In this document: positions 39,862-51,478 of the stretch, piece by piece
Layout of the letters: each line of letters begins with the position of its first letter
Numbering within the stretch: the first letter of the stretch is position 1
IMG/VR virus record: IMGVR_UViG_3300036800_000031
Coordinates: 1 to 64,000 of that record
DNA length: 64,000 nt
Reading direction: 5' to 3' (one strand)
From: a virus
The notes under the pieces: model-generated
What the model was told of the DNA's origin: nothing
The model's database searches: none
What the model saw: the letters and a program-made list of their open reading frames with translations, nothing else
Position numbers and translations under genes: made by a program

Positions 39862-40059
39862 GACAGACCTCTTTCGATTGAATCAGGGAACGGACGCCCG
39901 GATAGGCGATCCAACGCTCTCCCGACGGTCAATCGGACCTGTCGTGGGGTGCTGAGGAGAAAGGTAGCGCAAGGAAGGGAGGAGGGTATGGGATACCCCC
40001 GAACGCGAAACGACCGGAGCCTTTTGGACCCCGGCCGAATCGCCTTCACAGTACCTACG

Positions 40060-40131
40060 TGGCGGAGGGGAGACTCGAACTCCCGACTTCCTGGTTATGA
40101 GCCAGACGGGCTGCCGCTGCCCTACTCCGCT
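40060..40131 (-). tRNA. tRNA-Met(CAT), initiator-like
   Basis: cloverleaf; loop CTCATAA; A1xC72 mismatch. Confidence 0.85.
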
Positions 40132-40661
40132 GTGCTCATAGAAGCTACCAGGGTGGGCCTACCGATAGCAAGGTATGGCTCCCAAGCGGGGTCTGGCCGG
40201 ATTTTCAGGAGGTGGGCAGCGACGCCCTTGGGCCGGAAAGGGGTGTTGTGAAGTTCCCATCCCAGCGAGTCCAGGGTCTGGTGGCCCTTCTTCTGATTGC
40301 ATCTCCGGCAACAAGCGGTGACGTTCTCCCAGGTGTGCTTTCCACCGAGCGCCCTGGGGACGATGTGGTCGATGGTGCCGTCCTGGCGGACGTCCTTCTG
40401 GCAGTAGCCACACCGGTACCCATCTCGGGCACAGACGTTGGAAGTGATGAGCATGATGCTCCGGTGCTTCTCGGGCATCACGACGTACTTCCGAAGGACG
40501 AGGACCGAGGGGACCATGACCTGAGTAGACGGAGAGCGGAAGACTTCACCGCTGTATTCGATGGGGTCGGCAAGCTCCTCCAGGTAAAGCTCGACAGCAT
40601 CCCGGTCGCGAATGATCGCGAGGGGTTCTCTGCTGGCGTTCAGGAGGAGCGCCCTGTTCAT
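40122..40661 (-). CDS. HNH endonuclease (McrA-like)
   Basis: RDGYRCGYC...TIDHIVPRALGG...WENVTACCRRCNQKKG. Confidence 0.9.
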   Translation of the reverse strand: MNRALLLNASREPLAIIRDRDAVELYLEELADPIEYSGEVFRSPSTQVMVPSVLVLRKYVVMPEKHRSIMLITSNVCARDGYRCGYCQKDVRQDGTIDHIVPRALGGKHTWENVTACCRRCNQKKGHQTLDSLGWELHNTPFRPKGVAAHLLKIRPDPAWEPYLAIGRPTLVASMSTAE

Positions 40662-40707
40662 CTGATTCTCGGTCTCTTTGTCATCGTCACTGCTTTCTGG
40701 TTGATTC

Positions 40708-40794
40708 TGGTCTCAGCGGCGGGAGTCGAACCCGCATGGCCGTTCAGGCCAGCCCGTTTTGAGCGGGGTGCGTATTCCGTTCCGCCACGCTGAG
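40708..40794 (-). tRNA. tRNA-Leu(CAA)
   Basis: type II cloverleaf, loop CTCAAAA, CCA encoded. Confidence 0.9.
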
Positions 40795-40812
40795 GTGATC
40801 TGAATAGTCCAA

Positions 40813-40899
40813 TGGTGCGAACGGGGAGAGTCGAACTCCCACTGGGCCGAGCCCACCACAGTCTCAGTGTGGCCTGTCTACCGATTCCAGCACGCTCGC
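40813..40899 (-). tRNA. tRNA-Leu(GAG)
   Basis: type II, loop CTGAGAC, CCA encoded. Confidence 0.9.
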
Positions 40900-40900
40900 A

Positions 40901-40972
40901 TGGTGCCCCCGCCCGGAATCGAACCGGGATCGGCCTGATTAGAAGTCAGAGGACGGATTCCATCCCGAGGGC
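40901..40972 (-). tRNA. tRNA-Arg(TCT), atypical D arm
   Basis: loop CTTCTAA, canonical T arm, CCA encoded. Confidence 0.75.
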
Positions 40973-40973
40973 T

Positions 40974-41043
40974 TGGTACCGGAGCCGAGAATCGAACTCG
41001 GTCGCCACGATTATGAGCCGTGGGCCTGCCCAGCAAATCCGGC
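40974..41043 (-). tRNA. tRNA-Met/Ile2(CAT), short D arm
   Basis: loop CTCATAA, T arm, CCA encoded. Confidence 0.7.
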
Positions 41044-41193
41044 AAGATCAGATCGAATCTCCCGTGTGGCCTCTCGCTTCTCCTGGGCACGGGTAATGCG
41101 CTCGGGGCGTAGCCAGGAGTTGACCTCGCACATCCGATGCCCGTGGACAGGGCAGTGTGCGTTGATACCGATGTGCCCACGCATTTTCGCCAT
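41011..41193 (-). CDS. small basic protein inside the tRNA array
   Basis: MAKMRGHIG..CPVHGH..C...RAQEKREA; fills the gap between tRNAs. Confidence 0.5.
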   Translation of the reverse strand: MAKMRGHIGINAHCPVHGHRMCEVNSWLRPERITRAQEKREATREIRSDLAGFAGQAHGS

Positions 41194-41207
41194 GAGCACA
41201 TCGTAGG

Positions 41208-41283
41208 TGGGGTGGATGAGGGGAATCGAACCCCCTAACAGACACGGTCACAGCGTGCTCCCTCGCCATTTGGGTTCATCCAC
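41208..41283 (-). tRNA. tRNA-His(GTG)
   Basis: loop CTGTGAC, C73, CCA encoded. Confidence 0.85.
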
Positions 41284-41285
41284 AG

Positions 41286-41357
41286 TCCACCAGGTAGGGA
41301 TCGAACCTACGACCTTCACTTTGTAAGAGTGCTGCGCTCCCGCTGCGCCACTGGTGG
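41286..41357 (-). tRNA. tRNA-Val(TAC)
   Basis: loop CTTACAA. Confidence 0.9.
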
Positions 41358-41414
41358 TTGATGCTGGGGCCGGAGGATCGTAGGCAGGCCCTTACCTCCC
41401 CTCCGGCCTTAGCG

Positions 41415-41487
41415 TGCCCCCGGCAGGAATCGAACCCGCTCATCCTCCGATTAAAAGTCGGCTGACCTCCCACTGGCCTACAAGGGC
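41415..41487 (-). tRNA. tRNA-Lys(TTT)
   Basis: loop CTTTTAA. Confidence 0.85.
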
Positions 41488-41488
41488 A

Positions 41489-41564
41489 TGGTCCCCACCC
41501 TGGGTGTCGAACCCAGTGTCTTCCGAGTATCAGTCGGACGCCTTCACCGTCTGGCCCGATGGGG
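41489..41564 (-). tRNA. tRNA-Ile(GAT)
   Basis: loop CTGATAC, CCA encoded. Confidence 0.9.
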
Positions 41565-41608
41565 ATAAGTCAGGGCGGGATGGCAGCGAACCACCATCAC
41601 CGCCCCGG

Positions 41609-41681
41609 TGCCCGCAGAGGGTCTCGATCCCCCGGCCTTCGGCGTGTCGTGCCGACGCTCTCCCAACTGAGCTATGCGAGC
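41609..41681 (-). tRNA. tRNA-Val(GAC)
   Basis: loop ACGACAC (C33), otherwise canonical. Confidence 0.8.
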
Positions 41682-41682
41682 T

Positions 41683-41830
41683 TGGTGGAAACTCTCTCCC
41701 GGTCACGTCTGGCGACCGAACGGCACCGAGAGGGATGAACTCCGATGCTTCACGGTCGGCGGCTTCAGCCACGTTCATCAGCGCGTGACGCCACCCAGCG
41801 ACGTTCCTGAGAAGGAGGAGACAGGCTCCC
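41683..41830 (-). ncRNA. 148-nt structured RNA ending ACCA with an Ala-type acceptor stem
   Basis: 5' GGGAGC pairs with 3' GTTTCC-ACCA; internal GTCACG/CGTGAC and GATGAAC/GTTCATC helices. Confidence 0.55.
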
Positions 41831-41837
41831 CCTTCGG

Positions 41838-41910
41838 TGGTTCCCGCCGGGATCGAACCGACGCCTTCCGGGCTTCAACCGGACGCTGCTGCCAACTAAG
41901 CTAGAGAACC
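41838..41910 (-). tRNA. tRNA-Phe(GAA)
   Basis: loop TTGAAGC; 5' end overlaps the HNH stop codon. Confidence 0.85.
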
Positions 41911-42368
41911 TTGTTTTTTCTCCCCCGCCAGGTCGGCGTAAGGGCATGGCAGTTGGGGCATAGGATCGCCAGGTTCTCGATCCGGTGATCGTCCTTCACC
42001 CCGTTCATATGGTCAACCTCCAGTGGTATTGGCTGACCCATCCACTGGACCCGCTTGCACTCTTTACATTGACGCTTCCGCCCCTGCGCCAAGAGAATGG
42101 GCAGGAGGTGATAGGTCGGGTAGGTCGAGTTCTCGCAAAAGATTTCCTCCAGCGTGCGCCGACGAAGGGGCGCTCCACGGGTACCAACCCAGGACTGCCC
42201 GGTGAAGTGGCTGACATCGGCCCCAAGCCGCTTTGCATGTCTCTGGACCGAGCCGTAGTTGCCTCCGGCGAGATTAAGGCCGACTCCCCTGACTACCTGC
42301 GCCCAACTGGTCGAGGCGACGATGGCCTCCAGTAGCTCGGAATCGGTCCATGACCTCGGCTTGCCCAT
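41901..42368 (-). CDS. HNH homing endonuclease
   Basis: CKEC...W.GQPIPLEVDHMNGVKDDHRIENLAILCPNCH. Confidence 0.9.
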   Translation of the reverse strand: MGKPRSWTDSELLEAIVASTSWAQVVRGVGLNLAGGNYGSVQRHAKRLGADVSHFTGQSWVGTRGAPLRRRTLEEIFCENSTYPTYHLLPILLAQGRKRQCKECKRVQWMGQPIPLEVDHMNGVKDDHRIENLAILCPNCHALTPTWRGRKNKVL

Positions 42369-42385
42369 GCCGTAGTCTACCGTTA

Positions 42386-42416
42386 CGGACGCTCTCCCTG
42401 ACTGAGCTAGGGAACC
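42386..42416 (-). pseudogene. orphan 5' half of tRNA-Phe
   Basis: GGTTCCC-TAGCTCAGTCAGGGAGAGC-GTCCG, breaks off in the anticodon stem. Confidence 0.8.
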
Positions 42417-42417
42417 T

Positions 42418-42492
42418 TGGTGCGGCCCGGAGGAATCGAACCCCATCCGAGAGGGCATAAGCCTCTCTGCGGCCACCAGCCGCACGAGCCGC
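42418..42492 (-). tRNA. tRNA-Ile(TAT)
   Basis: loop CTTATGC, A73, CCA encoded. Confidence 0.75.
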
Positions 42493-42493
42493 A

Positions 42494-42566
42494 TGGAGCC
42501 GTCGCTGGGGGTCAAACCCAGCCGGGCGTCGTTACAAAGGACACCTCCGCATCGGGCGGCGACGGC
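42494..42566 (-). tRNA. tRNA-Thr(TGT), atypical
   Basis: loop TTTGTAA, GCC...GGC-TCCA acceptor, degenerate D arm. Confidence 0.65.
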
Positions 42567-42567
42567 A

Positions 42568-42646
42568 TGGCTGGGGAGGAGGGCCTCGAACCCCCAAGGA
42601 ATCCTGTTTCAAAGACAGGCGACTTTGCCACTTTGTCTACTCCCCA
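42568..42646 (-). tRNA. tRNA-Gln(TTG)
   Basis: loop CTTTGAA, CCA encoded. Confidence 0.9.
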
Positions 42647-42647
42647 A

Positions 42648-42721
42648 TGGAACGGACGAAGGGAATCGAACCCTCATAGTCAGATTGGAAGTCTGACGTT
42701 CTACCGTTGAACTACGTCCGC
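42648..42721 (-). tRNA. tRNA-Gly(TCC)
   Basis: loop CTTCCAA, CCA encoded. Confidence 0.9.
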
Positions 42722-42722
42722 A

Positions 42723-42824
42723 TGGTGGACAGAGAGAAGATGCTCTCGACGTATTACCGCCGTAAGTGTGACCCTCCCCTTTCCCAAGACCGTGGCATTG
42801 CCAGCTTGGGTTAGGCGTCTGCCC
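42723..42824 (-). ncRNA. 102-nt structured RNA ending ACCA with an Ala-type acceptor stem
   Basis: GGGCAGA/TCTGTCC-ACCA 7-bp stem with G3:U70; no TTC loop and no anticodon arm. Confidence 0.6.
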
Positions 42825-42835
42825 AGCGCCATCGG

Positions 42836-42907
42836 AGCGAATGACGGGGGTCGAACCCGCGACCTTCTCGTTGGCAACGAGACGCTCTACCACTGAGCCA
42901 CATTCGC
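42836..42907 (-). tRNA. tRNA-Gly(GCC)
   Basis: loop TTGCCAA. Confidence 0.9.
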
Positions 42908-42909
42908 AT

Positions 42910-42983
42910 TGGAGGCTGGACCCGGAATCGAACCGGGCTGACGCGGGTTGCAACCGCGCACCTCACCACTCGGCCATCCAGCC
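42910..42983 (-). tRNA. tRNA-Cys(GCA)
   Basis: loop TTGCAAC, U73, CCA encoded. Confidence 0.9.
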
Positions 42984-42987
42984 AAAG

Positions 42988-43058
42988 CCCCCTCGCTAGG
43001 TAACGATCCCAGTTCTTCCGATTAACAGTCGGACGTGTGGCCTTCACACCGCAAGGGG
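42988..43058 (-). tRNA. tRNA-Asn(GTT), divergent D and T loops
   Basis: loop CTGTTAA. Confidence 0.75.
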
Positions 43059-43062
43059 AAAA

Positions 43063-43479
43063 TCAAGCCACCACCTGCCGGTTGGCGCACCCACCCATTC
43101 GGTAGATCCGTTTGGCCTCCCTGCATCGGGAACACCGGCAGCCGTTTGGCATGTTGTACCGAGCACCTGTTCCGTGAGGTGGTACCGGCAACTTGTTGTG
43201 TCCACCACCAGAAGCCATATCTCCGGCTTCTTTCCCTTTCTCTATGTGGAGGGCATGGCAAAGAAGTTGACATTTCTCCAACTCGACCAAGAGGTTCTCC
43301 ATCGAGTGAGAGAGCATGTTCGCTATCCCCTCGACCTTTGTAGTCCGGTCGATGTGGTCTATTTCTAGGCGGTCTGTCGTACCGCAACGGACGCATTCAC
43401 CTCCGAGGAAGTCGATAACGAACTCTCGTCGCTTCTTCCGACGTTCGACCATGTAGGTGTTCATATCTGCCATCGGCAT
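43063..43479 (-). CDS. HNH endonuclease
   Basis: LGGECVRCG...LEIDHID...ELEKCQLLCHALH; C-terminal HGT...GCRCSRC. Confidence 0.85.
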   Translation of the reverse strand: MPMADMNTYMVERRKKRREFVIDFLGGECVRCGTTDRLEIDHIDRTTKVEGIANMLSHSMENLLVELEKCQLLCHALHIEKGKEAGDMASGGGHNKLPVPPHGTGARYNMPNGCRCSRCREAKRIYRMGGCANRQVVA

Positions 43480-43539
43480 AGGGGTTAACCGTACTACCGA
43501 CGCCGACTGAGCACCCCCGCCAAGAGGGTCCGGTCAGGA

Positions 43540-43590
43540 TGGTGCCAGGCTTTCCGCCCCACTCGATCCCCGAAGGGTTACGAACCTGGC
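43540..43590 (-). ncRNA. 51-nt mini-RNA ending ACCA
   Basis: GCCAGGTT/AGCCTGGC-ACCA stem enclosing a CCC-TTCG-GGG hairpin. Confidence 0.4.
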
Positions 43591-43602
43591 TGGTGGTCTT
43601 CG

Positions 43603-43674
43603 TAGCGCGTGCGGGTGTTGATCCCGCGGCCTCCTGACTGAGAATCAGGCGTTCTCCCGTTGAACTAACGCGCC
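43603..43674 (-). tRNA. tRNA-Glu(CTC)
   Basis: loop TTCTCAG. Confidence 0.85.
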
Positions 43675-43675
43675 T

Positions 43676-43750
43676 TGGTACAGCGACGGAGAATCGAACT
43701 CCGATTACCAGGGTGAAAACCTGGCCTCTTCGCCGTTAGAGGATCGCTGC
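43676..43750 (-). tRNA. tRNA-Glu(TTC)
   Basis: loop TTTTCAC, CCA encoded. Confidence 0.9.
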
Positions 43751-43816
43751 ATGAAGCTGAGTAGCCGCCACCCCAGGTACCCAGGTGACCAGTGAAGCCC
43801 CGGCGGACTGCCCCGG

Positions 43817-43900
43817 CGGAGAGTACAGGTGTCGATCCCGCGGACTTTCATCCGTATCCCTGCTTTCAAGGCAGGTTCCCAGGCCGCTGGGATACTCTCC
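43817..43900 (-). tRNA. tRNA-Ser(TGA)
   Basis: type II, loop CTTGAAA, G73. Confidence 0.8.
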
Positions 43901-44301
43901 CTGCTCGGGCTCGAACGGTGTTCTTGCCCTTGTAGGTTTCCGTCTGAGCGTGACAGTTCGCGCAGAGCAGACGGAGATTCTCGATGCGGTGGTCATCGTT
44001 GATCCATCTCCAACGGAGCTGGCTCGCCGTTCCATTCGGTCAGGCCACACCGATCACACTTCGGCTGCTTGATCCCCTCTCGGAGAAGCCGCCGTTTCAC
44101 GTTGCCGGTGCTGTAGGTGGAGTGCTCCACTAGCACCGACTCCAGGGACCTCTGGTTGCCCCGTGGGGTCGCCCACGGCCTCGTGTGGGAGGTCGAGCAA
44201 CTGATGGAGCAGTAGGCCCGCTGGGTCTGAGACAGGAAGTTGTGACAGGAGCCATTCCCGCAAACATGCTGGCTGCGACCAGCGATCGGGAGCCAACTCA
44301 T
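43866..44301 (-). pseudogene. frameshifted HNH endonuclease
   Basis: one frame ends ...WNGEPAPLEMD and another continues NDDHRIENLRLLCANCHAQTETYKGKN; the HING segment is missing. Confidence 0.8.
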
Positions 44302-44346
44302 GACGACAGCTTACTATCCTGTTCGGGCGACCGAATGGCCGTCCAG

Positions 44347-44429
44347 CGGAAGTGGTCGGGGTCGAACCGACAGGGGCTTTCACCCGTAGACGCTTAGCGG
44401 GCGTCCTGCTCACCATTCGCATCACTTCC
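44347..44429 (-). tRNA. tRNA-Ser(GCT)
   Basis: type II, loop CCGCTAA (C33), G73. Confidence 0.8.
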
Positions 44430-44433
44430 AAAG

Positions 44434-44501
44434 AACCCCCGCTGGGAATCGAACCCAGCCAGCCGGTTTAGGAAACCAGCGCCCCTTCCACGGGCGAGGG
44501 C
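44434..44501 (-). tRNA. tRNA-Arg(CCT), reduced D arm
   Basis: loop TTCCTAA. Confidence 0.7.
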
Positions 44502-44502
44502 A

Positions 44503-44578
44503 TGGAGCCGACAGCCGGGATCGAACCGGCCACCTACGCGTTACGAGTGCGTCGCTCTCCCTACTGAGCTATGTCGGC
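44503..44578 (-). tRNA. tRNA-Thr(CGT)
   Basis: loop CTCGTAA, CCA encoded. Confidence 0.9.
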
Positions 44579-44579
44579 A

Positions 44580-44656
44580 TGGAGCCACGACGGGGGATCG
44601 AACCCCGGACCTCCTACTTACCAAGCAGGCGCTCTCCCTGACTGAGCTATCGCGGC
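44580..44656 (-). tRNA. tRNA-Thr(GGT)
   Basis: loop TTGGTAA, CCA encoded. Confidence 0.9.
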
Positions 44657-44730
44657 CGGACCGGCTAGACCATCAGCGCCCTTCCGGGTTGATTACGTCA
44701 GGGACGTTGTACACCGTCCTTTTCGCCGAG

Positions 44731-44799
44731 TGGCCAAGGTGGGACTCGAACCCACAGGGCGTTCCTTCGGAGGGATCGCTGCATTCCATCGCCTTGGCC
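44731..44799 (-). tRNA. tRNA-Arg(CCG)-like, degenerate D arm
   Basis: perfect acceptor and T arms; loop CTCCGAA on an extended, mismatched stem. Confidence 0.55.
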
Positions 44800-44800
44800 C

Positions 44801-44876
44801 TGGTACCCCCATCCAGGGTCGAACTGAAATCTTCGGTTCCGTAGACCGACGCTCTGATCCATTGAGCTATGAGGGC
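44801..44876 (-). tRNA. tRNA-Arg(ACG)
   Basis: loop CTACGGA, CCA encoded. Confidence 0.9.
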
Positions 44877-44882
44877 AAGAAA

Positions 44883-44993
44883 AAAGCGGACCTCCCACTC
44901 GCAGGCCGGTATGCCTTCCGACCCCGTACACTCGGCTCGGGCACCACCCCTTCGCCACGTCGCAATCATGCTGGTGGTAAGACGGTCCGCTTT
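44883..44993 (-). ncRNA. 111-nt rod-shaped structured RNA
   Basis: AAAGCGGACC/GGTCCGCTTT terminal helix extended by three further helices; 3' U-tract. Confidence 0.5.
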
Positions 44994-45048
44994 CGGGACA
45001 GCCGCCCTGTGGCGGCTTTTCATCGCAGGATTGCCTGCGCATCCCGAG

Positions 45049-45121
45049 CGGTCGTGACCGGTTTTGATCCGGCTACCTCCACCTTGACAGGGTGGCGCTC
45101 TCCCGAGTGAGCTACACGACC
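45049..45121 (-). tRNA. tRNA-Asp(GTC)
   Basis: loop CTGTCAA, G73. Confidence 0.9.
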
Positions 45122-45122
45122 T

Positions 45123-45199
45123 TGGTCCGCTAGACAGGATTTGAACCTGCGACCTCATCGTCCCGAACGATGCGCGCTCCCTAGCTGCGCTACTAGCGG
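45123..45199 (-). tRNA. tRNA-Pro(CGG)
   Basis: loop TTCGGGA, CCA encoded. Confidence 0.9.
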
Positions 45200-45200
45200 T

Positions 45201-45274
45201 TGGCTCCCCAGCCAAGGGTCGAACTTGGATACCGAGATTCAGAATCTCGTGTGCTGCCATTACACCACCGGGGA
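45201..45274 (-). tRNA. tRNA-Gln(CTG)
   Basis: loop TTCTGAA, CCA encoded. Confidence 0.9.
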
Positions 45275-45347
45275 AGGCTGCGGACTCTGCCGCGGGTCAC
45301 GCCTAGTTAGGGTCGGCGTTCACCCATGCCCGGTGATCAGTCGGGAG

Positions 45348-45419
45348 TCGGATACCGGAGAGTCGAACTCCGCTGGGCCTGGCCCCAAACCAGGTGCCTA
45401 ACCGATCGGCATGTATCCG
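45348..45419 (-). tRNA. tRNA-Pro(TGG)
   Basis: loop TTTGGGG. Confidence 0.8.
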
Positions 45420-45493
45420 GTGTCGCTGTCTCTCCAGCAGCAACGTCTGGTATCCCCAGGTCTAAGTAGGGGTTCGGGACGACGTTCTCCCGG

Positions 45494-45565
45494 TCGGACT
45501 GGAGGGGATCGAACCCTCGACTTCTCGGCCCCCAGCCGAGCGCTCTACCTCTGAGCCACAGTCCG
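45494..45565 (-). tRNA. tRNA-Pro(GGG)
   Basis: loop CTGGGGG. Confidence 0.9.
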
Positions 45566-45669
45566 GTGAAACCTGACCCGCTGCCAGTAGACAGTTGCCC
45601 CGGAGGGCTTCACATGCGTGTGCACCTCGCATGAACGACGGAATGGATTATCACCGTCCCGAGTCATTG

Positions 45670-45742
45670 TGCGCCCGGTGGGGTTTGAACCCACGACCTT
45701 GGGATTAAGAATCCCCTGCTCTCCCGGCTGAGCTACAAGCGC
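45670..45742 (-). tRNA. tRNA-Lys(CTT)
   Basis: loop TTCTTAA. Confidence 0.9.
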
Positions 45743-45743
45743 C

Positions 45744-45828
45744 TGGTGCGTGTGGAGGGAGTCGAACCCTCAGCCCCGAAGGGCACCGCTTCTGGGGCGG
45801 CTGCGTATACCAGTTCCGCCACGAACGC
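45744..45828 (-). tRNA. tRNA-Leu(CAG)
   Basis: type II, loop CCCAGAA (C33), CCA encoded. Confidence 0.8.
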
Positions 45829-45863
45829 AGGATGGGCAGTTTTCAGACTTGGCCCAGGTCGCG

Positions 45864-45936
45864 TGGAGCCTACGAGGATCGAACTCGTTACCTCCTGTTT
45901 GCAAAACAGGCGCTCTCCCGGATGAGCTAAGGCCCC
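45864..45936 (-). tRNA. tRNA-Ala(TGC)
   Basis: G3:U70, loop TTTGCAA. Confidence 0.9.
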
Positions 45937-45942
45937 AAAGCT

Positions 45943-46044
45943 AGGATGCGGGCTGCCATTACACCACCGCAGCCCCCGAGGGGGTGAAAGTTCCCTTGCG
46001 GTTGCTCTCTTACGCGACGTGGAATCGAACCACGACCTCATCCT
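45943..46044 (-). ncRNA. circularly permuted tRNA-like RNA (YrlA/Y-RNA-like)
   Basis: T arm CGTGG-TTCGATT-CCACG lies 5' of the D-arm sequence TGGTGTAATGGCAGC; ends closed by AGGATG/CATCCT. Confidence 0.65.
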
Positions 46045-46046
46045 CG

Positions 46047-46125
46047 TCCGCCGCCTCAGAATCGAACTGAGCGTGCTTGCGCGGCTGGTTTACAGCCAGC
46101 CTGGCCCCCTTGGCGCGTGCGACGG
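46047..46125 (-). tRNA. tRNA-Tyr(GTA)
   Basis: loop CTGTAAA, variable arm, C1:G72. Confidence 0.75.
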
Positions 46126-46265
46126 ATGCGGGACGGTCGGTACCCGGGCAACTGCCCGGCCCGTCCCATTTGGACTATTCAGCGTGACGGGTTTTGTTCG
46201 GTACCGTCACTATCGCCTGCTACCTCCCTCACTCGCCATGACGGACGAGGTACTGAGGTTTGAAG

Positions 46266-46297
46266 CATGGGTGGAGGGAGTCGAACCCCCCTTCACC
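46266..46297 (-). pseudogene. orphan 3' remnant of the resident tRNA-Trp
   Basis: T arm plus CACCCAT-G, exactly complementary to ATGGGTG at 46756-46762. Confidence 0.8.
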
Positions 46298-46300
46298 TCG

Positions 46301-46371
46301 CATGGGCGTCAGGAATCGAACCTGATCGGCGAGAGTTTTGGAGACTCTCCGGCTACCTCAGCCTCGCCCAT
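46301..46371 (-). tRNA. tRNA-Trp(CCA), replacement copy overlapping the HNH gene
   Basis: ATGGGCG/CGCCCAT-G acceptor, loop CTCCAAA. Confidence 0.8.
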
Positions 46372-46707
46372 ATGCGCTCGGAAGTAGGTGCGATCCCCGT
46401 GGCACAGGGCACACACCACTTCACACTTGGCTATCTCGGCCAGCAGCCGGGCAACCGAAGCCGGAGAATGAGCCATCCGGTTGATACATCGGTCTTTCTC
46501 CTCGTCCCCGAGGTGGTCGAAGTGCATGTTCCAGAACCCGTACTGGATTCCACAATCTGCACAGGGCCGGTTTTTGTGCTCTCGGACTATCGACCGATTG
46601 CGCTCCCGGTACTCGACTACTCGCTGCCGATACTGAGCCTTGTTGTTTCGATAATGCTTCCTCTTGCTCTCCTTCAGTCGTGGATCTTCTAGGTCGAGAT
46701 AGGCCAT
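46309..46707 (-). CDS. HNH homing endonuclease
   Basis: PCADCG...MHFDHL...EIAKCEVVCALCHGDRT. Confidence 0.85.
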   Translation of the reverse strand: MAYLDLEDPRLKESKRKHYRNNKAQYRQRVVEYRERNRSIVREHKNRPCADCGIQYGFWNMHFDHLGDEEKDRCINRMAHSPASVARLLAEIAKCEVVCALCHGDRTYFRAHMGEAEVAGESPKLSPIRFDS

Positions 46708-46726
46708 GCCCTCAGCGTAGGTCCAG

Positions 46727-46762
46727 TGGAAGCCGCTGCTCTGCCCACTGAGCTACACCCAT
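46727..46762 (-). pseudogene. orphan 5' half of the resident tRNA-Trp, ending at the anticodon
   Basis: ATGGGTG-TAGCTCAGTGGGCAGAGC-A-GCGGC-TTCCA, then unrelated sequence. Confidence 0.85.
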
Positions 46763-46763
46763 A

Positions 46764-46793
46764 AGAAAAGGCCACCCCTATTGGGATGGCCTC
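46764..46793 (-). terminator. intrinsic terminator-like hairpin at the head of the tRNA array
   Basis: AGGCCATCCC-AATA-GGGGTGGCCT followed by TTTCTT. Confidence 0.6.
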
Positions 46794-46955
46794 TGGATTC
46801 TCCGCTTCTACTTCAGATGCGGTTACGAGAGGCTCACCCCTGGCTTGGCTTCGGTGGATGTATTCCACTGATAGCCGGGCACGAGGATCGACAGGCACGG
46901 CAACGCCGTCCCTCGATCTTCATAGCTCGGAAACAGTTGGAACCTCATGACGTTC

Positions 46956-46983
46956 ATAGTACCCCGATTTCGAGGGGGGTCAA
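46956..46983 (-). promoter_or_regulatory. sigma70/SigA-like promoter for the tRNA array
   Basis: TTGACC-N16-TACTAT. Confidence 0.55.
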
Positions 46984-47621
46984 GTACCCTGTGCTGCCCG
47001 GCGGCTTGGAAGGCCCATCGTGTTGCCGATCTGCCCGCCGTTCATCCAGTGGTGCCAGGTCCAGGTGCGCTCCGGAAGGTGAGCGATTTTGTACCCGGAG
47101 CGGGCGAGCTTGATGGCGAAGTGGAACTCCTCCCCAGCCCGATTTCCGTCCTCATCCTGACCCGGATCGAGAGGGTCGGTCCCGTCTTCCCAAAGGAACC
47201 CGTTGACCGCCAATGCCGCTTCGGTACGCACGAGGACGGTCACGGTGGTCTGGTGGGGATCGGCCAGATCGAACTCCCGTCCGAAGTTGTCAGGGAAGGG
47301 GTCCGAGCCGCCCATGACGTAGAACCAAGGGAACACCATGTCCGCCCCGGTCTCAATCTGCTTCTCCATCAGCCGTTGGAGGTGGTGCTCCCCGAACTCG
47401 TCGTCGTCATCCAGAAAGGCAACCCACTCGGTGTCCACCATTTCCAAGCCACGGGTGCGGGTGATGGCCGCTCCTACTCCGAAAACGTCGCTGGCGACGA
47501 TCAGCGTATGGGGGAGAACGGTGCCCTTCTGGACGGAAGTAACCGCCCGGCCTAGAAGCTGTGCCCGCTCGGGGATGGTGGTGACGACGACGGTGATCCC
47601 CGGCCTTAGCTGGCTCGACAC
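46980..47621 (-). CDS. glycosyltransferase family 2
   Basis: ITVVVTTIPER...AITRTRGL...WVAFLDDDDEF. Confidence 0.85.
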   Translation of the reverse strand: MSSQLRPGITVVVTTIPERAQLLGRAVTSVQKGTVLPHTLIVASDVFGVGAAITRTRGLEMVDTEWVAFLDDDDEFGEHHLQRLMEKQIETGADMVFPWFYVMGGSDPFPDNFGREFDLADPHQTTVTVLVRTEAALAVNGFLWEDGTDPLDPGQDEDGNRAGEEFHFAIKLARSGYKIAHLPERTWTWHHWMNGGQIGNTMGLPSRRAAQGT

Positions 47622-51453: not shown

Positions 51454-51478
51454 GGCTCTCTGTCTAGTTGATATGCGG

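Follow-up and report, generated by a model that had tools for sequence, protein, structure and literature searches.

A predicted nuclease gene and a fused tRNA-Trp gene nested in a split phage tRNA-Trp gene: a probable homing cassette

Homing endonuclease genes are thought to persist by residing in self-splicing introns, in inteins or at intergenic sites, and group I introns with homing endonuclease genes occur in the anticodon loops of bacterial tRNA genes. The locus described here has its closest known counterparts in the T4 nuclease SegB and in mobile endonuclease ORFs (mORFs) from fungal mitochondria. SegB of phages T4 and T6 is a free-standing GIY-YIG homing endonuclease whose gene lies in a tRNA gene cluster (PMC2330249; PMC13096335). 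According to excerpts of these papers, it cuts within the tRNA genes of phages without SegB, reads a conserved T-loop motif of many tRNAs, and is co-inherited with neighbouring tRNA genes at the cost of the rival's tRNA markers; the excerpts describe neither a one-to-one pairing with a tRNA of the same anticodon nor an insertion inside the target that leaves half-tRNA remnants. SegF and SegG of T4, which act by intronless homing and marker exclusion, lie beside a variant of their target gene, and when the cut allele of the rival is repaired, the flanks are co-converted (PMC2330249, in excerpt). The mORFs create gene hybrids, for example at atp6 of Allomyces macrogynus: on entering a gene, the ORF carries with it a foreign version of the portion that it displaces, the native portion is left as an unexpressed downstream remnant, and insert-free relatives have the whole native gene (PMC3630166, in excerpt). 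The free-standing phage enzyme F-CphI, a DHHRN (Endo VII-motif) homing endonuclease, targets psbA (PMC6083498, in excerpt).

The present locus lies on the minus strand of a 64,000-nt stretch of DNA from a soil phage, referred to below as the window (positions 1 to 64,000 of IMG/VR record IMGVR_UViG_3300036800_000031). As with SegB, a nuclease gene stands free among the tRNA genes of a phage, a location common to further known nuclease ORFs for which no split or passenger tRNAs were found described, but the predicted enzyme here is of the His-Me-finger type, the cassette has a tRNA with the anticodon of the broken gene, and it shows both an insertion inside the target and half-tRNA remnants. 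It resembles the mORFs in the logic of insertion and differs in target and setting: mORFs occur in mitochondria, belong to other endonuclease families and supply an in-frame C-terminal replacement piece to a protein gene, whereas the present element targets a tRNA gene and supplies a whole gene. The replacements by SegF and SegG are clean, allelic exchanges of protein genes between collinear genomes, whereas the arrangement in the window is nested and non-allelic. As with the group I introns, a tRNA gene is broken close to its anticodon arm while a working tRNA is presumably retained; neutrality there comes from RNA self-splicing, whereas here it would come from a spare gene, with no ribozyme and with 12 nt of the target lost. 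A limited literature search turned up no description of a tRNA gene that houses a nuclease gene together with a replacement tRNA. The architecture, which the sequence-only reading took to be undescribed, is nevertheless not entirely unprecedented, since mORFs do likewise to protein genes.

Layout of the locus and its insert-free allele

The features of the locus, in the direction of transcription, are as follows.

46956..46983, minus strand: promoter-like site (TTGACC, 16 nt, TACTAT) upstream of the tRNA array; consensus match only
46763..46794, minus strand: G+C-rich hairpin followed by a T-rich run, read from the sequence; ends 1 nt before the 5' remnant
46727..46762, minus strand: 5' remnant of the resident tRNA-Trp, tRNA positions 1-36 (ATGGGTG acceptor strand, D arm, 5' strand of the anticodon stem, loop to CCA)
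46291..46726, minus strand: inserted cassette, 436 bp, replacing 12 bp of the resident gene (tRNA positions 37-48)
46708..46726, minus strand: cassette leader, 19 nt, with GAGGG 5 nt 5' of the ATG, resembling a ribosome-binding site as judged by eye
46309..46707, minus strand: predicted HNH / His-Me-finger nuclease ORF, 132 aa (ORF list and PHROG profiles)
46300..46371, minus strand: inner tRNA-Trp(CCA), intact, with a compact D arm (ARAGORN); the passenger of the cassette
46291..46299, minus strand: cassette tail, 9 nt, linking the inner tRNA to the resident T arm; missing from the insert-free allele
46266..46290, minus strand: 3' remnant of the resident tRNA-Trp (T stem-loop, 3' acceptor strand CACCCAT, discriminator G)

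The sequence-only reading had named a tRNA 5' half, an HNH ORF, a complete tRNA-Trp and an orphan T arm with acceptor strand, and all four are present in that order on the minus strand. Its 3' remnant, with T arm, CACCCAT and G ending at 46266, is correct except for the start, which is 46290, since positions 46297-46291 belong to the insert as judged by the insert-free allele. The acceptor strands of the two outer remnants, ATGGGTG and CACCCAT, form 7 of 7 Watson-Crick pairs, and both orphan pieces are matched by a tRNA profile built from 268 phage tRNAs (5' piece, 10.0 bits; 3' piece, 9.6 bits). The resident tRNA-Trp is the first gene in the tRNA array of the phage. The promoter scan found one site, compared with a mean of 0.3 in shuffled sequences, and this predicted promoter (46956..46983) is the likely source of the transcript entering the locus. 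The hairpin at 46763..46794 aligns weakly with the terminator part of the Rfam Phe_leader (20 bits, E 1.8) and was not called by the terminator scan.

An allele without the insert was found only by aligning contigs to the locus. Two contigs from two other soil studies, one of run X3 (54,612 nt, depth 18.2) and one of run X7 (227 nt, depth 2.2), align on both sides and join position 46290 to 46727 through the same 12 other letters, skipping the 436 nt from 46291 to 46726. ARAGORN identifies the rejoined form as an intact tRNA-Trp(CCA) of 74 nt, which folds into a cloverleaf. Relatives are thus polymorphic for presence or absence of the cassette, and the intact ATGGGTG...CACCCAT tRNA-Trp gene, which the sequence-only reading had proposed to look for in related phages, exists without an HNH gene. 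These data show that the cassette took the place of tRNA positions 37-48 of the resident gene, and that the resident tRNA-Trp gene is dead here, because the 3' strand of the anticodon stem and the variable loop are gone.

Other searches for related sequences were negative. A further run, X2, covers the stretch partially and bridges neither junction. No megablast match to a close relative was obtained in 50,697 phage records, and an exact search with the 36-nt 5' half found nothing in IMG/VR, JGI metagenomes or GTDB genomes. The neighbouring glycosyltransferase has no relative in IMG/VR, and its only relative in JGI metagenomes is 28% identical (L086, left out of the analysis).

The inner tRNA-Trp(CCA) is the sole tRNA-Trp that ARAGORN finds in the 89-kb genome. 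Its cloverleaf is common to the HNH-linked tRNA-Trp of two other loci, L009 and L045, and among the three phages 13 of the 21 pairs show compensatory changes. It scores below the Rfam RF00005 gathering score, its best clan match being tRNA-Sec (32.6 bits versus 47), and for this reason its function is not assured; the adjoining tRNA-Tyr called by ARAGORN is likewise below the gathering score. Compared with the resident-type tRNA, it differs at nearly every position of the anticodon stem, the variable loop and the T stem. The inner tRNA covers the final 63 nt (21 codons) of the HNH ORF. The overlap, described in the sequence-only reading as a tRNA recoded within the coding sequence, is real, but "recoded" overstates it: the matching HNH-tRNA junction of L009 has a stop codon at tRNA positions 8-10, and the 21-codon read-through therefore looks like a lost stop rather than designed dual coding. 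When introns were allowed, the sole ARAGORN call was a chimeric "tRNA-Leu(gag)" that begins at the 5' end of the outer tRNA, closes at the 3' end of the inner one and contains a 369-nt intron; we regard it as spurious.

The predicted nuclease and its homologues

The protein matches three PHROG "HNH endonuclease" families, 3106 (E 1.1e-19), 2255 (E 3.2e-17) and 4234 (E 5.5e-9). All 16 residues that are invariant across 37 aligned homologues are kept in the window protein, including C49, C52, D64, H65, C99, C102 and H103, which comprise two CxxC pairs, D64-H65 and the His after the second pair. By likeness to T4 Endo VII (PMC6083498), these residues would provide a catalytic Asp-His pair and a zinc site. 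N101 of the CANCH motif, present in at least 90% of the homologues, is L in the window protein. The conserved core ends near residue 108, and residues 113-132 are read-through into the inner tRNA. The Pfam HNH family PF01844 does not match the window protein and matches 1 of the 37 homologues (E 0.0077). A PDB sequence search with the protein returned nothing at E <= 1, and Foldseek with the structure model (pLDDT 90.3) nothing at E <= 0.001. Matches to the beta-beta-alpha-metal fold were weak: with VIA-align, the top rows were mostly HNH domains with Z values in the tool's middling range; the best was the Gme HNH nicking endonuclease (4h9d_C, Z 5.4, rmsd 3.0, 60 aligned residues), and T4 Endo VII (2qnf_A) gave Z 4.0, rmsd 4.3 and 71 aligned residues.

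F-CphI is similar in its small C-terminal domain with CxxC...DH...CxxC, a metal ligand and no central Asn. The DHHRN enzymes are defined by DHDH, Arg and a terminal Asn, whereas the window protein has FDHLGD, an invariant K71 and H103; by the definition in the excerpt of PMC6083498, it has a related layout and is not a member. The target of F-CphI is likewise different, being psbA and not a tRNA gene.

The survey of homologues comprised 86 HNH units, including that of the window, with 80 loci kept of the 575 IMG/VR loci that encode a relative. In six units (the window, L021, L022 twice, L059 and L064) the HNH gene lies between two matching split-tRNA halves, compared with a mean of 0.37 in permutations, none of 1000 of which reached six; the other 80 units have no split tRNA by the criteria applied. 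These criteria were set after a lax version (6 of 50 candidates, where permutations had a mean of 1.785 and reached 6 at most; not significant), in which one match (L012) looked false and L064 was missed; in the final scan the pairing and D-arm criteria were tightened and the T-loop pattern was widened. The association of HNH homologues with split-tRNA remnants, named by the sequence-only reading as a way to check its idea, is therefore borne out in a minority of the family, and together with the existence of the insert-free allele the permutation test on the 86 units excludes a chance layout. In all six cases the 5' remnant stops somewhere from position 36 to position 45, and the 3' remnant resumes at the T stem or immediately ahead of it. 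The full nested layout is present again in L022 (Glu-CTC), and again in L064 (Arg-TCT) with a degenerate inner tRNA.

Fusion of the HNH gene to an intact tRNA is a trait of the family. In 23 of the 86 units a same-strand intact tRNA starts between -11 and +28 nt past the conserved core, compared with scattered distances of 38-433 nt to upstream tRNAs. Among the 27 units with an intact downstream tRNA, four, namely those of the window, L022, L021 and L059 (two with Trp, one with Glu-CTC and one with Arg-ACG), have an orphan 5' half of the same anticodon upstream, a number reached in 4 of 5000 permutations. The stand-alone 5'-half scanner is unspecific (0.555 matches per 340 nt of background) and was used only with an anticodon match. 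A tree of 79 of the 86 units (seven, with an internal stop or fewer than 70 aa, were left out) left most forks unresolved; the HNH genes linked to tRNA-Trp form no supported clade, and the four Trp-linked rows need four changes, equal to shuffles, which gives support in neither direction.

A cultured pair of phages provides a further comparison. The Streptomyces phage Patelgo carries an HNH homologue, gp131, and the near-identical Moab does not (99.2% identity across the shared 54% of the query, with identical flanks). In Patelgo a segment consisting of a 48-nt spacer, the HNH gene and a tRNA-Cys replaces the resident tRNA-Cys, and the exchange respects the tRNA-Cys boundaries exactly. The two tRNA-Cys genes agree in just 39 of 75 columns, and four clustered substitutions, which may reflect co-conversion of flanking markers, occur in the T arm of the adjoining tRNA-His, beside 144 identical columns. 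This clean swap agrees with the tRNA-swap interpretation offered by the sequence-only reading, and resembles the SegF and SegG cases, as excerpted in PMC2330249, in being a clean replacement between collinear genomes.

A proposed mechanism and its alternatives

We think it likely that a free-standing homing-endonuclease cassette, consisting of leader, HNH gene and fused tRNA-Trp, inserted into the resident tRNA-Trp(CCA) gene; cleavage of the resident allele by the HNH protein and immunity of the spare tRNA are what we infer from the data. In a co-infected cell, the nuclease would cleave the resident-type tRNA gene, at the DNA level, past the anticodon arm and short of the T stem; a few bases would be lost to resection, and repair of the break would copy in the cassette from a donor genome. 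The passenger tRNA would escape cutting because it has diverged from the resident type in the anticodon stem, the variable loop and the T stem, and by keeping the phage supplied with tRNA-Trp it would make the insertion nearly neutral. With 12 bp gone at its junction, the broken gene may likewise be immune. Collinear donor and recipient arrays would give a clean swap, as between Patelgo and Moab, whereas in the window both ends would have been resolved within the target gene, leaving two remnants. Because the tRNA begins within the ORF, maturation of the tRNA 5' end would sever the nuclease mRNA and may act as a brake on expression; such a brake has been proposed for SegB and the T5 enzymes (PMC2330249, in excerpt).

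It is conceivable that the HNH gene and tRNA arrived by illegitimate or tRNA-repeat recombination, independently of any cutting of this tRNA gene, and that the nuclease is aimed elsewhere or dead, tRNA genes being possibly recombination-prone landing places. Such a history would account for junctions without visible homology, for the L at position 101 and for the orphan tRNA pieces at 46044-45943, which have no HNH gene nearby; tRNA arrays are moreover rich in short repeats, and breaks induced by SegB are reported to promote recombination among tRNA genes (PMC13096335, in excerpt). We nevertheless consider it unlikely, because isoacceptor and position are respected, which disfavours chance landings: the inner and broken anticodons match in 4 of 27 units, the break position is consistent in the six split cases, and the Patelgo/Moab swap is exact at the tRNA-Cys edges. 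Searches revealed no donor that shares these junctions, and neither junction shows clear homology, so this particular insertion may be illegitimate rather than true homing. A further extension of the cassette reading, to which we give little credence, is that the nested form is a self-contained mobile element, with the remnants of the last victim serving as portable homology arms. If so, the cassette would home into any tRNA gene of that type in any surrounding genome and cause continual turnover of tRNA alleles in phage arrays, and the incoming tRNAs could benefit the phage, because they differ in the anticodon arm and variable loop, the parts attacked by tRNA-cutting host defences; such cassettes would then be mobile anti-defence modules and not pure parasites.

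A functional outer tRNA-Trp, through removal of the insert from the RNA or cooperation of the two outer pieces, is very improbable. The idea draws on four of the six split cases, all outside the window (L021-2291, L022-1501, L022-551 and L064), whose outer genes retain all arms: when the insert is simply removed in silico, ARAGORN again calls a tRNA of consistent anticodon for 148-159 of the 308 boundary pairs. In the window, by contrast, the 12 nt of the 3' anticodon-stem strand and variable loop are missing, excision yields a tRNA-Trp in only 7 of 308 cases, and fewer than 30 nt of the insert are neither ORF nor inner tRNA. No group I or II intron or other ribozyme was among the 12 Rfam matches (E <= 10, 45900-47100), and a group I intron in a tRNA gene was rejected, there being no ribozyme core and no complete tRNA from the flanking exons. 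Assembly error, by a chimeric join of two molecules bearing tRNA-Trp, is hardly credible: repeats, tRNAs among them, can mislead assemblers and the sole run with the whole stretch may be the source sample, but an independent Logan contig from the same run (5,093 nt) contains the entire 1,201-nt stretch with 0 differences, the record, at 89,253 nt, is a genome that bears terminal repeats and has a completeness rating of 100%, and the nested layout occurs also in the unrelated contigs L022 and L064.

Read as a homing cassette, the locus would represent a fourth way for homing endonuclease genes to persist, suited to RNA genes: the gene is destroyed and a spare is brought along, with the states before and after both documented. 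The spare is cheap, because a tRNA gene is only about 72 bp. As 23 of the 86 units are fused to a tRNA, the mechanism may be among the chief forces behind the mosaic and rapidly changing tRNA arrays found in large phages, and it would explain the stray half-tRNAs that annotation pipelines ignore or miscall. Patelgo, with the cassette, and Moab, without it, are cultured and harmless Streptomyces phages, and offer a tractable system for studying homing, co-conversion and what a swapped tRNA does to fitness.

Elsewhere in the 64-kb window, a second cassette with an HNH gene of another family lies at a tRNA-Phe gene, with an orphan 5' half, and the orphan tRNA pieces at 46044-45943 are distant from any HNH gene.

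Layout of the split tRNA-Trp locus

The record is 89,253 nt in length, has terminal repeats and is rated 100% complete; its first 64 kb, the window, is G+C-rich and carries 35 ARAGORN tRNA genes, of which 34 form a minus-strand array at 40059-46371 and one more lies at 51477. The split tRNA-Trp locus is situated on the minus strand at the upstream end of the array, and its parts in order of transcription are as follows.

46794-46763, minus strand: hairpin with a T-rich tail
46762-46727, minus strand: 5' half of the resident tRNA, with ATGGGTG acceptor strand, regular D arm and anticodon-stem 5' strand, ending at CCA
Between the 5' half and the ORF, minus strand: 19 nt ahead of the ATG, containing GAGGG
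46707-46309, minus strand: nuclease ORF, 132 aa
46371-46300, minus strand: intact inner tRNA-Trp(cca) called by ARAGORN, overlapping the final 21 ORF codons
Between the inner tRNA and the 3' remnant, minus strand: 9 nt
46290-46266, minus strand: 3' remnant, consisting of T stem-loop, CACCCAT strand and G

The outer acceptor strands, CACCCAT and ATGGGTG, pair at 7 of 7 positions, and both outer pieces were recognized as orphan fragments (10.0 and 9.6 bits) by a tRNA profile built from 268 phage tRNAs. These results bear out the sequence-only reading that an orphan 5' half ending at anticodon CCA matches an orphan T arm plus acceptor strand, and the ARAGORN call agrees with its complete tRNA-Trp(CCA) overlapping the 3' end of the HNH gene. 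It had placed the 3' remnant at 46297-46266; the T arm and acceptor strand are indeed present, but the true start is 46290, as given by the joint of the insert-free allele described below. Since the outer anticodon-stem strand has no partner in the outer pieces, the outer tRNA gene is incomplete.

In PHROG the ORF hits three families, all of them labelled HNH endonuclease (E 1.1e-19, 3.2e-17 and 5.5e-9); no family was matched in Pfam, and a PDB sequence search gave no match. At E <= 1e-5, 117 proteins match the nuclease, with a top non-self identity of 56%. An alignment of 37 homologues contains 16 invariant residues, including C49, C52, D64-H65, K71, C99, C102 and H103, in the layout CxxC ... 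DH ... CxxC-H, and N101, nearly invariant among the aligned homologues, is L in the window's protein. With the confident AlphaFold model (pLDDT 90.3), Foldseek returned nothing at E <= 0.001; VIA-align ranked HNH domains at the top, although the scores are in the middle range (Gme HNH, Z 5.4, rmsd 3.0, 60 aligned; T4 Endo VII, Z 4.0). The layout resembles that of the Endo VII-motif (DHHRN) family of F-CphI as characterized in PMC6083498, but the second His, the Arg and the terminal Asn typical there are absent, so the product files only as a predicted His-Me-finger (HNH sensu lato) nuclease.

The inner tRNA is the sole ARAGORN tRNA-Trp of the whole 89,253-nt genome. It is atypical, with one base between the acceptor and D stems and a very short D loop, and it falls below the Rfam tRNA gathering score, as does the adjacent ARAGORN tRNA-Tyr. 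In two other loci, L009 and L045, a homologous HNH gene (proteins 43% and 40% identical, respectively) is followed by a tRNA of the same odd type. All three tRNAs fit a single cloverleaf in which 13 of 21 pairs have changed in a compensatory way; though a small sample, they argue for a constrained RNA travelling with the nuclease gene. As the ORF stop TAG in L009 lies within tRNA positions 8-10, at a spacing equal to that of the window, the 21-codon overlap looks like the loss of a stop codon. The resident-type anticodon arm (GCGGC-TTCCA...) recurs in two other tRNA-Trp genes, a free one of Myxococcus phage Mx1 and a split one of locus L021. Beyond the window the record adds just two tRNAs, both with anticodon cta and labelled 'Pyl' by ARAGORN; they are adjacent at 8098-8241 of L087, a later part of the same genome (genome 72098-72241, plus strand), and are possible amber suppressors.

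Insert-free and exchanged alleles

No close relatives were found in phage records, IMG/VR, JGI metagenomes or GTDB genomes; a run index showed that parts of the stretch are present in soil metagenomes, and contigs (not reads) of four runs were compared against 45900-47100. In run X1, possibly the source sample, the entire stretch lies inside a 5,093-nt contig with 0 differences. In contigs of runs X3 (54,612 nt, depth 18.2, study P3) and X7 (227 nt, depth 2.2, study P4), position 46290 is joined straight to 46727, with 436 nt skipped and an identical 12 other letters at the joint in both; the cassette is thus 46291-46726. The X3 contig differs from 45900-46290 by 32 other letters and 13 gaps, from 46727-46909 by 29 and 14, and from 47008-47098 by 10 other letters; being aligned on both sides of the locus, it represents a related phage at the same genomic position.

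When the 12 letters were placed by script between the two window pieces, ARAGORN called a 74-nt tRNA-Trp(cca), which RNAfold folded to a cloverleaf (-27.7 kcal/mol). The related phages with an intact tRNA-Trp at the locus that the sequence-only reading had asked for are therefore at hand in the X3 and X7 contigs. The 12 letters make up positions 37-38, the anticodon-stem 3' strand and a 5-nt variable loop, exactly the gap between the remnants. As a deletion could not create them, the insert-free state, judged from these sequences, must be ancestral relative to the cassette-bearing state.

In the X3 relative, 2,650 other letters replace 98 nt at window 46909-47008, between the array's promoter-like region and the glycosyltransferase gene; this replacement is itself a further indel difference beside the locus. 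Three other X7 contigs carry the resident-type 5' half and anticodon arm, with loose ends at 46727 and a different T arm onward. Other phages, or bacteria, are the probable owners of these tRNA-Trp genes, and the putative target sequence would then occur beyond the window's phage.

An exchange is also seen between two cultured Streptomyces phages. The nuclease homologue of Patelgo, gp131, is fused to a tRNA-Cys, and the Moab region matches that of Patelgo at 99.2% identity across 54% of the query in two pieces. The upstream flank has 144 identical columns, 4 clustered substitutions in the T arm of tRNA-His, and then identity through the tRNA-His end. Patelgo continues with a 48-nt spacer, the HNH gene and a tRNA-Cys that agrees with its Moab counterpart at that place in only 39 of 75 columns; from the final 4 tRNA bases onward, 454 of 455 columns are identical. 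The nuclease gene thus arrives with a different same-anticodon tRNA replacing the resident one in otherwise almost identical genomes. Among Gilsonvirus-like Streptomyces phages, the tRNA-His/tRNA-Cys junction holds a LAGLIDADG endonuclease gene in Forrest and unnamed ORFs in Jada, Kenrey, Phredrick and Francob; on gene content, this junction is a hot spot for predicted mobile nuclease genes.

Recurrence across the nuclease family

A pattern derived from the alignment was scanned against IMG/VR and gave 599 stretches, 575 of them encoding a relative. The best 80 of the 575 loci, the window and four named-phage loci were surveyed (85 loci, 317 ARAGORN tRNAs); their 92 HNH matches gave 86 units after removal of identical copies. 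In 23 of the 86 units an intact same-strand tRNA begins -11 to +28 nt past the codon aligned with residue 108, while distances to the preceding tRNA are scattered (38-433 nt). This tight downstream spacing indicates that 3' fusion to a tRNA is a family trait; the fused isoacceptors are Trp, Gln, Glu, Arg, Pro, Lys, Met, Cys, Gly, Leu and Asn.

A split tRNA was scored where a downstream orphan T arm plus acceptor strand and an upstream orphan 5' half with D arm had acceptor strands pairing at 7 of 7 positions with at most 2 G-T. Six units qualified (the window, L021-2291, L022-1501, L022-551, L059-2585 and L064) and 80 showed none by these criteria, the half-tRNA detectors being apt to overlook degenerate pieces (L064 and L021-2291 each escaped one version). 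Shuffling acceptor strands among units gave a mean of 0.37 split cases and reached 6 in 0 of 1000 shuffles. A same-anticodon orphan 5' half lies upstream in 4 of the 27 units having an intact downstream tRNA, namely the window (Trp), L021-1501 (Trp), L022-551 (Glu-CTC) and L059-1501 (Arg-ACG), a number reached in 4 of 5000 label shuffles. The proposed association of HNH homologues with split-tRNA scars was upheld by both comparisons.

L022-551 repeats the full layout of 5' part, HNH, intact same-anticodon tRNA and 3' remnant; L064 does so with an inner tRNA-Arg(TCT)-like sequence uncalled by ARAGORN, and an intact inner tRNA is lacking from three of the split cases. In each of the six, the 5' remnant breaks off within positions 36-45, and the 3' remnant resumes at the T stem or immediately ahead of it. 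Simple excision gives an ARAGORN-positive tRNA with a stable anticodon in four of the six (148-159 of 308 boundary pairs), but not in the window (7 of 308).

Three contigs (L021 1334-2620, L059 1321-2900 and L022 385-1820) carry two cassettes each in differing states. One state has a 5' remnant and an intact tRNA, another a split tRNA with no inner tRNA, and a third the complete nested layout. The second HNH ORF of L059 starts within degenerate tRNA-like sequence.

Proposed mechanism, precedents and other nuclease genes of the array

The insertion takes the place of 12 bp of the resident tRNA gene and brings a passenger tRNA with the anticodon of that gene; across the family, nuclease-tRNA fusion, recurrence at the equivalent part of other tRNA genes and presence/absence polymorphism are observed. 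In the most likely mechanism, the putative nuclease would cleave the DNA of a resident-type tRNA gene at a point past the anticodon arm and ahead of the T stem, and the cassette would be copied in during repair. The passenger tRNA would escape cutting because it differs from the resident type in that region, and would render the insertion nearly neutral. Collinear arrays may yield a clean exchange, as in Patelgo/Moab, while in the window both ends would have been resolved within the target gene. Given the ORF-tRNA overlap, tRNA maturation would cut the nuclease mRNA; a processing brake of this sort on expression is put forward in PMC2330249 for SegB and for the enzymes of T5.

Passive, untargeted insertion would fit the missing junction homology and the N101L change in the nuclease, but is unlikely in view of the matching anticodons of the broken and inner tRNAs and the constant interruption position. 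Very little weight falls on an intron or two-piece tRNA, a reading conceivable for the four non-window split cases that retain all arms, but excluded for the window by the 12 missing nt together with the lack of a ribozyme match. Slighter still is the chance of an assembly artefact, given the independent contig and the same layout elsewhere.

According to PMC2330249 and PMC13096335, SegB of T4/T6 cleaves tRNA genes and is passed on along with the tRNA genes beside it, so displacing the markers of the rival. It works like the window's cassette at the level of the tRNA cluster but is, in these accounts, a GIY-YIG enzyme without one-to-one tRNA partner or nesting. The closest logic is that of fungal mitochondrial mobile endonuclease ORFs, which, according to PMC3630166, enter atp6, atp9, cox2 or nad3 carrying a C-terminal piece of foreign origin, the native piece persisting as a remnant. 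The literature searched, with partial coverage, contained no description of this insertion-plus-spare-copy logic for tRNA genes.

The array contains further nuclease genes beside tRNAs:

42416-41836, minus strand: second cassette, with orphan 5' half (GGTTCCC ... to position 30), HNH ORF and intact tRNA-Phe(gaa)
43479-43063, minus strand: HNH ORF of PHROG 4234, one of the main nuclease's families (E 1.7e-32), ending 5 nt before tRNA-Asn
40661-40122, minus strand: HNH ORF of PHROG 16726, its 3' end overlapping the tRNA-Met start

No half-tRNA remnants were seen by eye beside the latter two ORFs. In the second cassette (orphan half 42416-42386) the HNH belongs to PHROG 10822 (E 1.7e-40), a family distinct from that of the main nuclease. 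The 3' acceptor strand of its tRNA-Phe pairs perfectly with the orphan half, whereas pairing with the 5' strand of the tRNA-Phe itself includes a G-T wobble; this points to a chimeric gene, its 5' part imported and its 3' part resident.

Between tRNA-Tyr and tRNA-Ala (46044-45943, minus strand), orphan tRNA pieces occur in the order 3' part (T arm plus acceptor strand) then 5' part (acceptor strand plus D arm), with a profile match to the T arm at 46041-46015 (6.3 bits); they could be two scars of earlier cassette turnover. The X3 relative spans this region with many changes. At 44301-43900 (minus strand), ORF 43993-44301 matches PHROG 10822 to the catalytic region only and ends ...EMDQR, the remaining HNH motif lying in another frame and running into tRNA-Ser(tga). 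It appears to be a decayed homing endonuclease gene with a frameshift.
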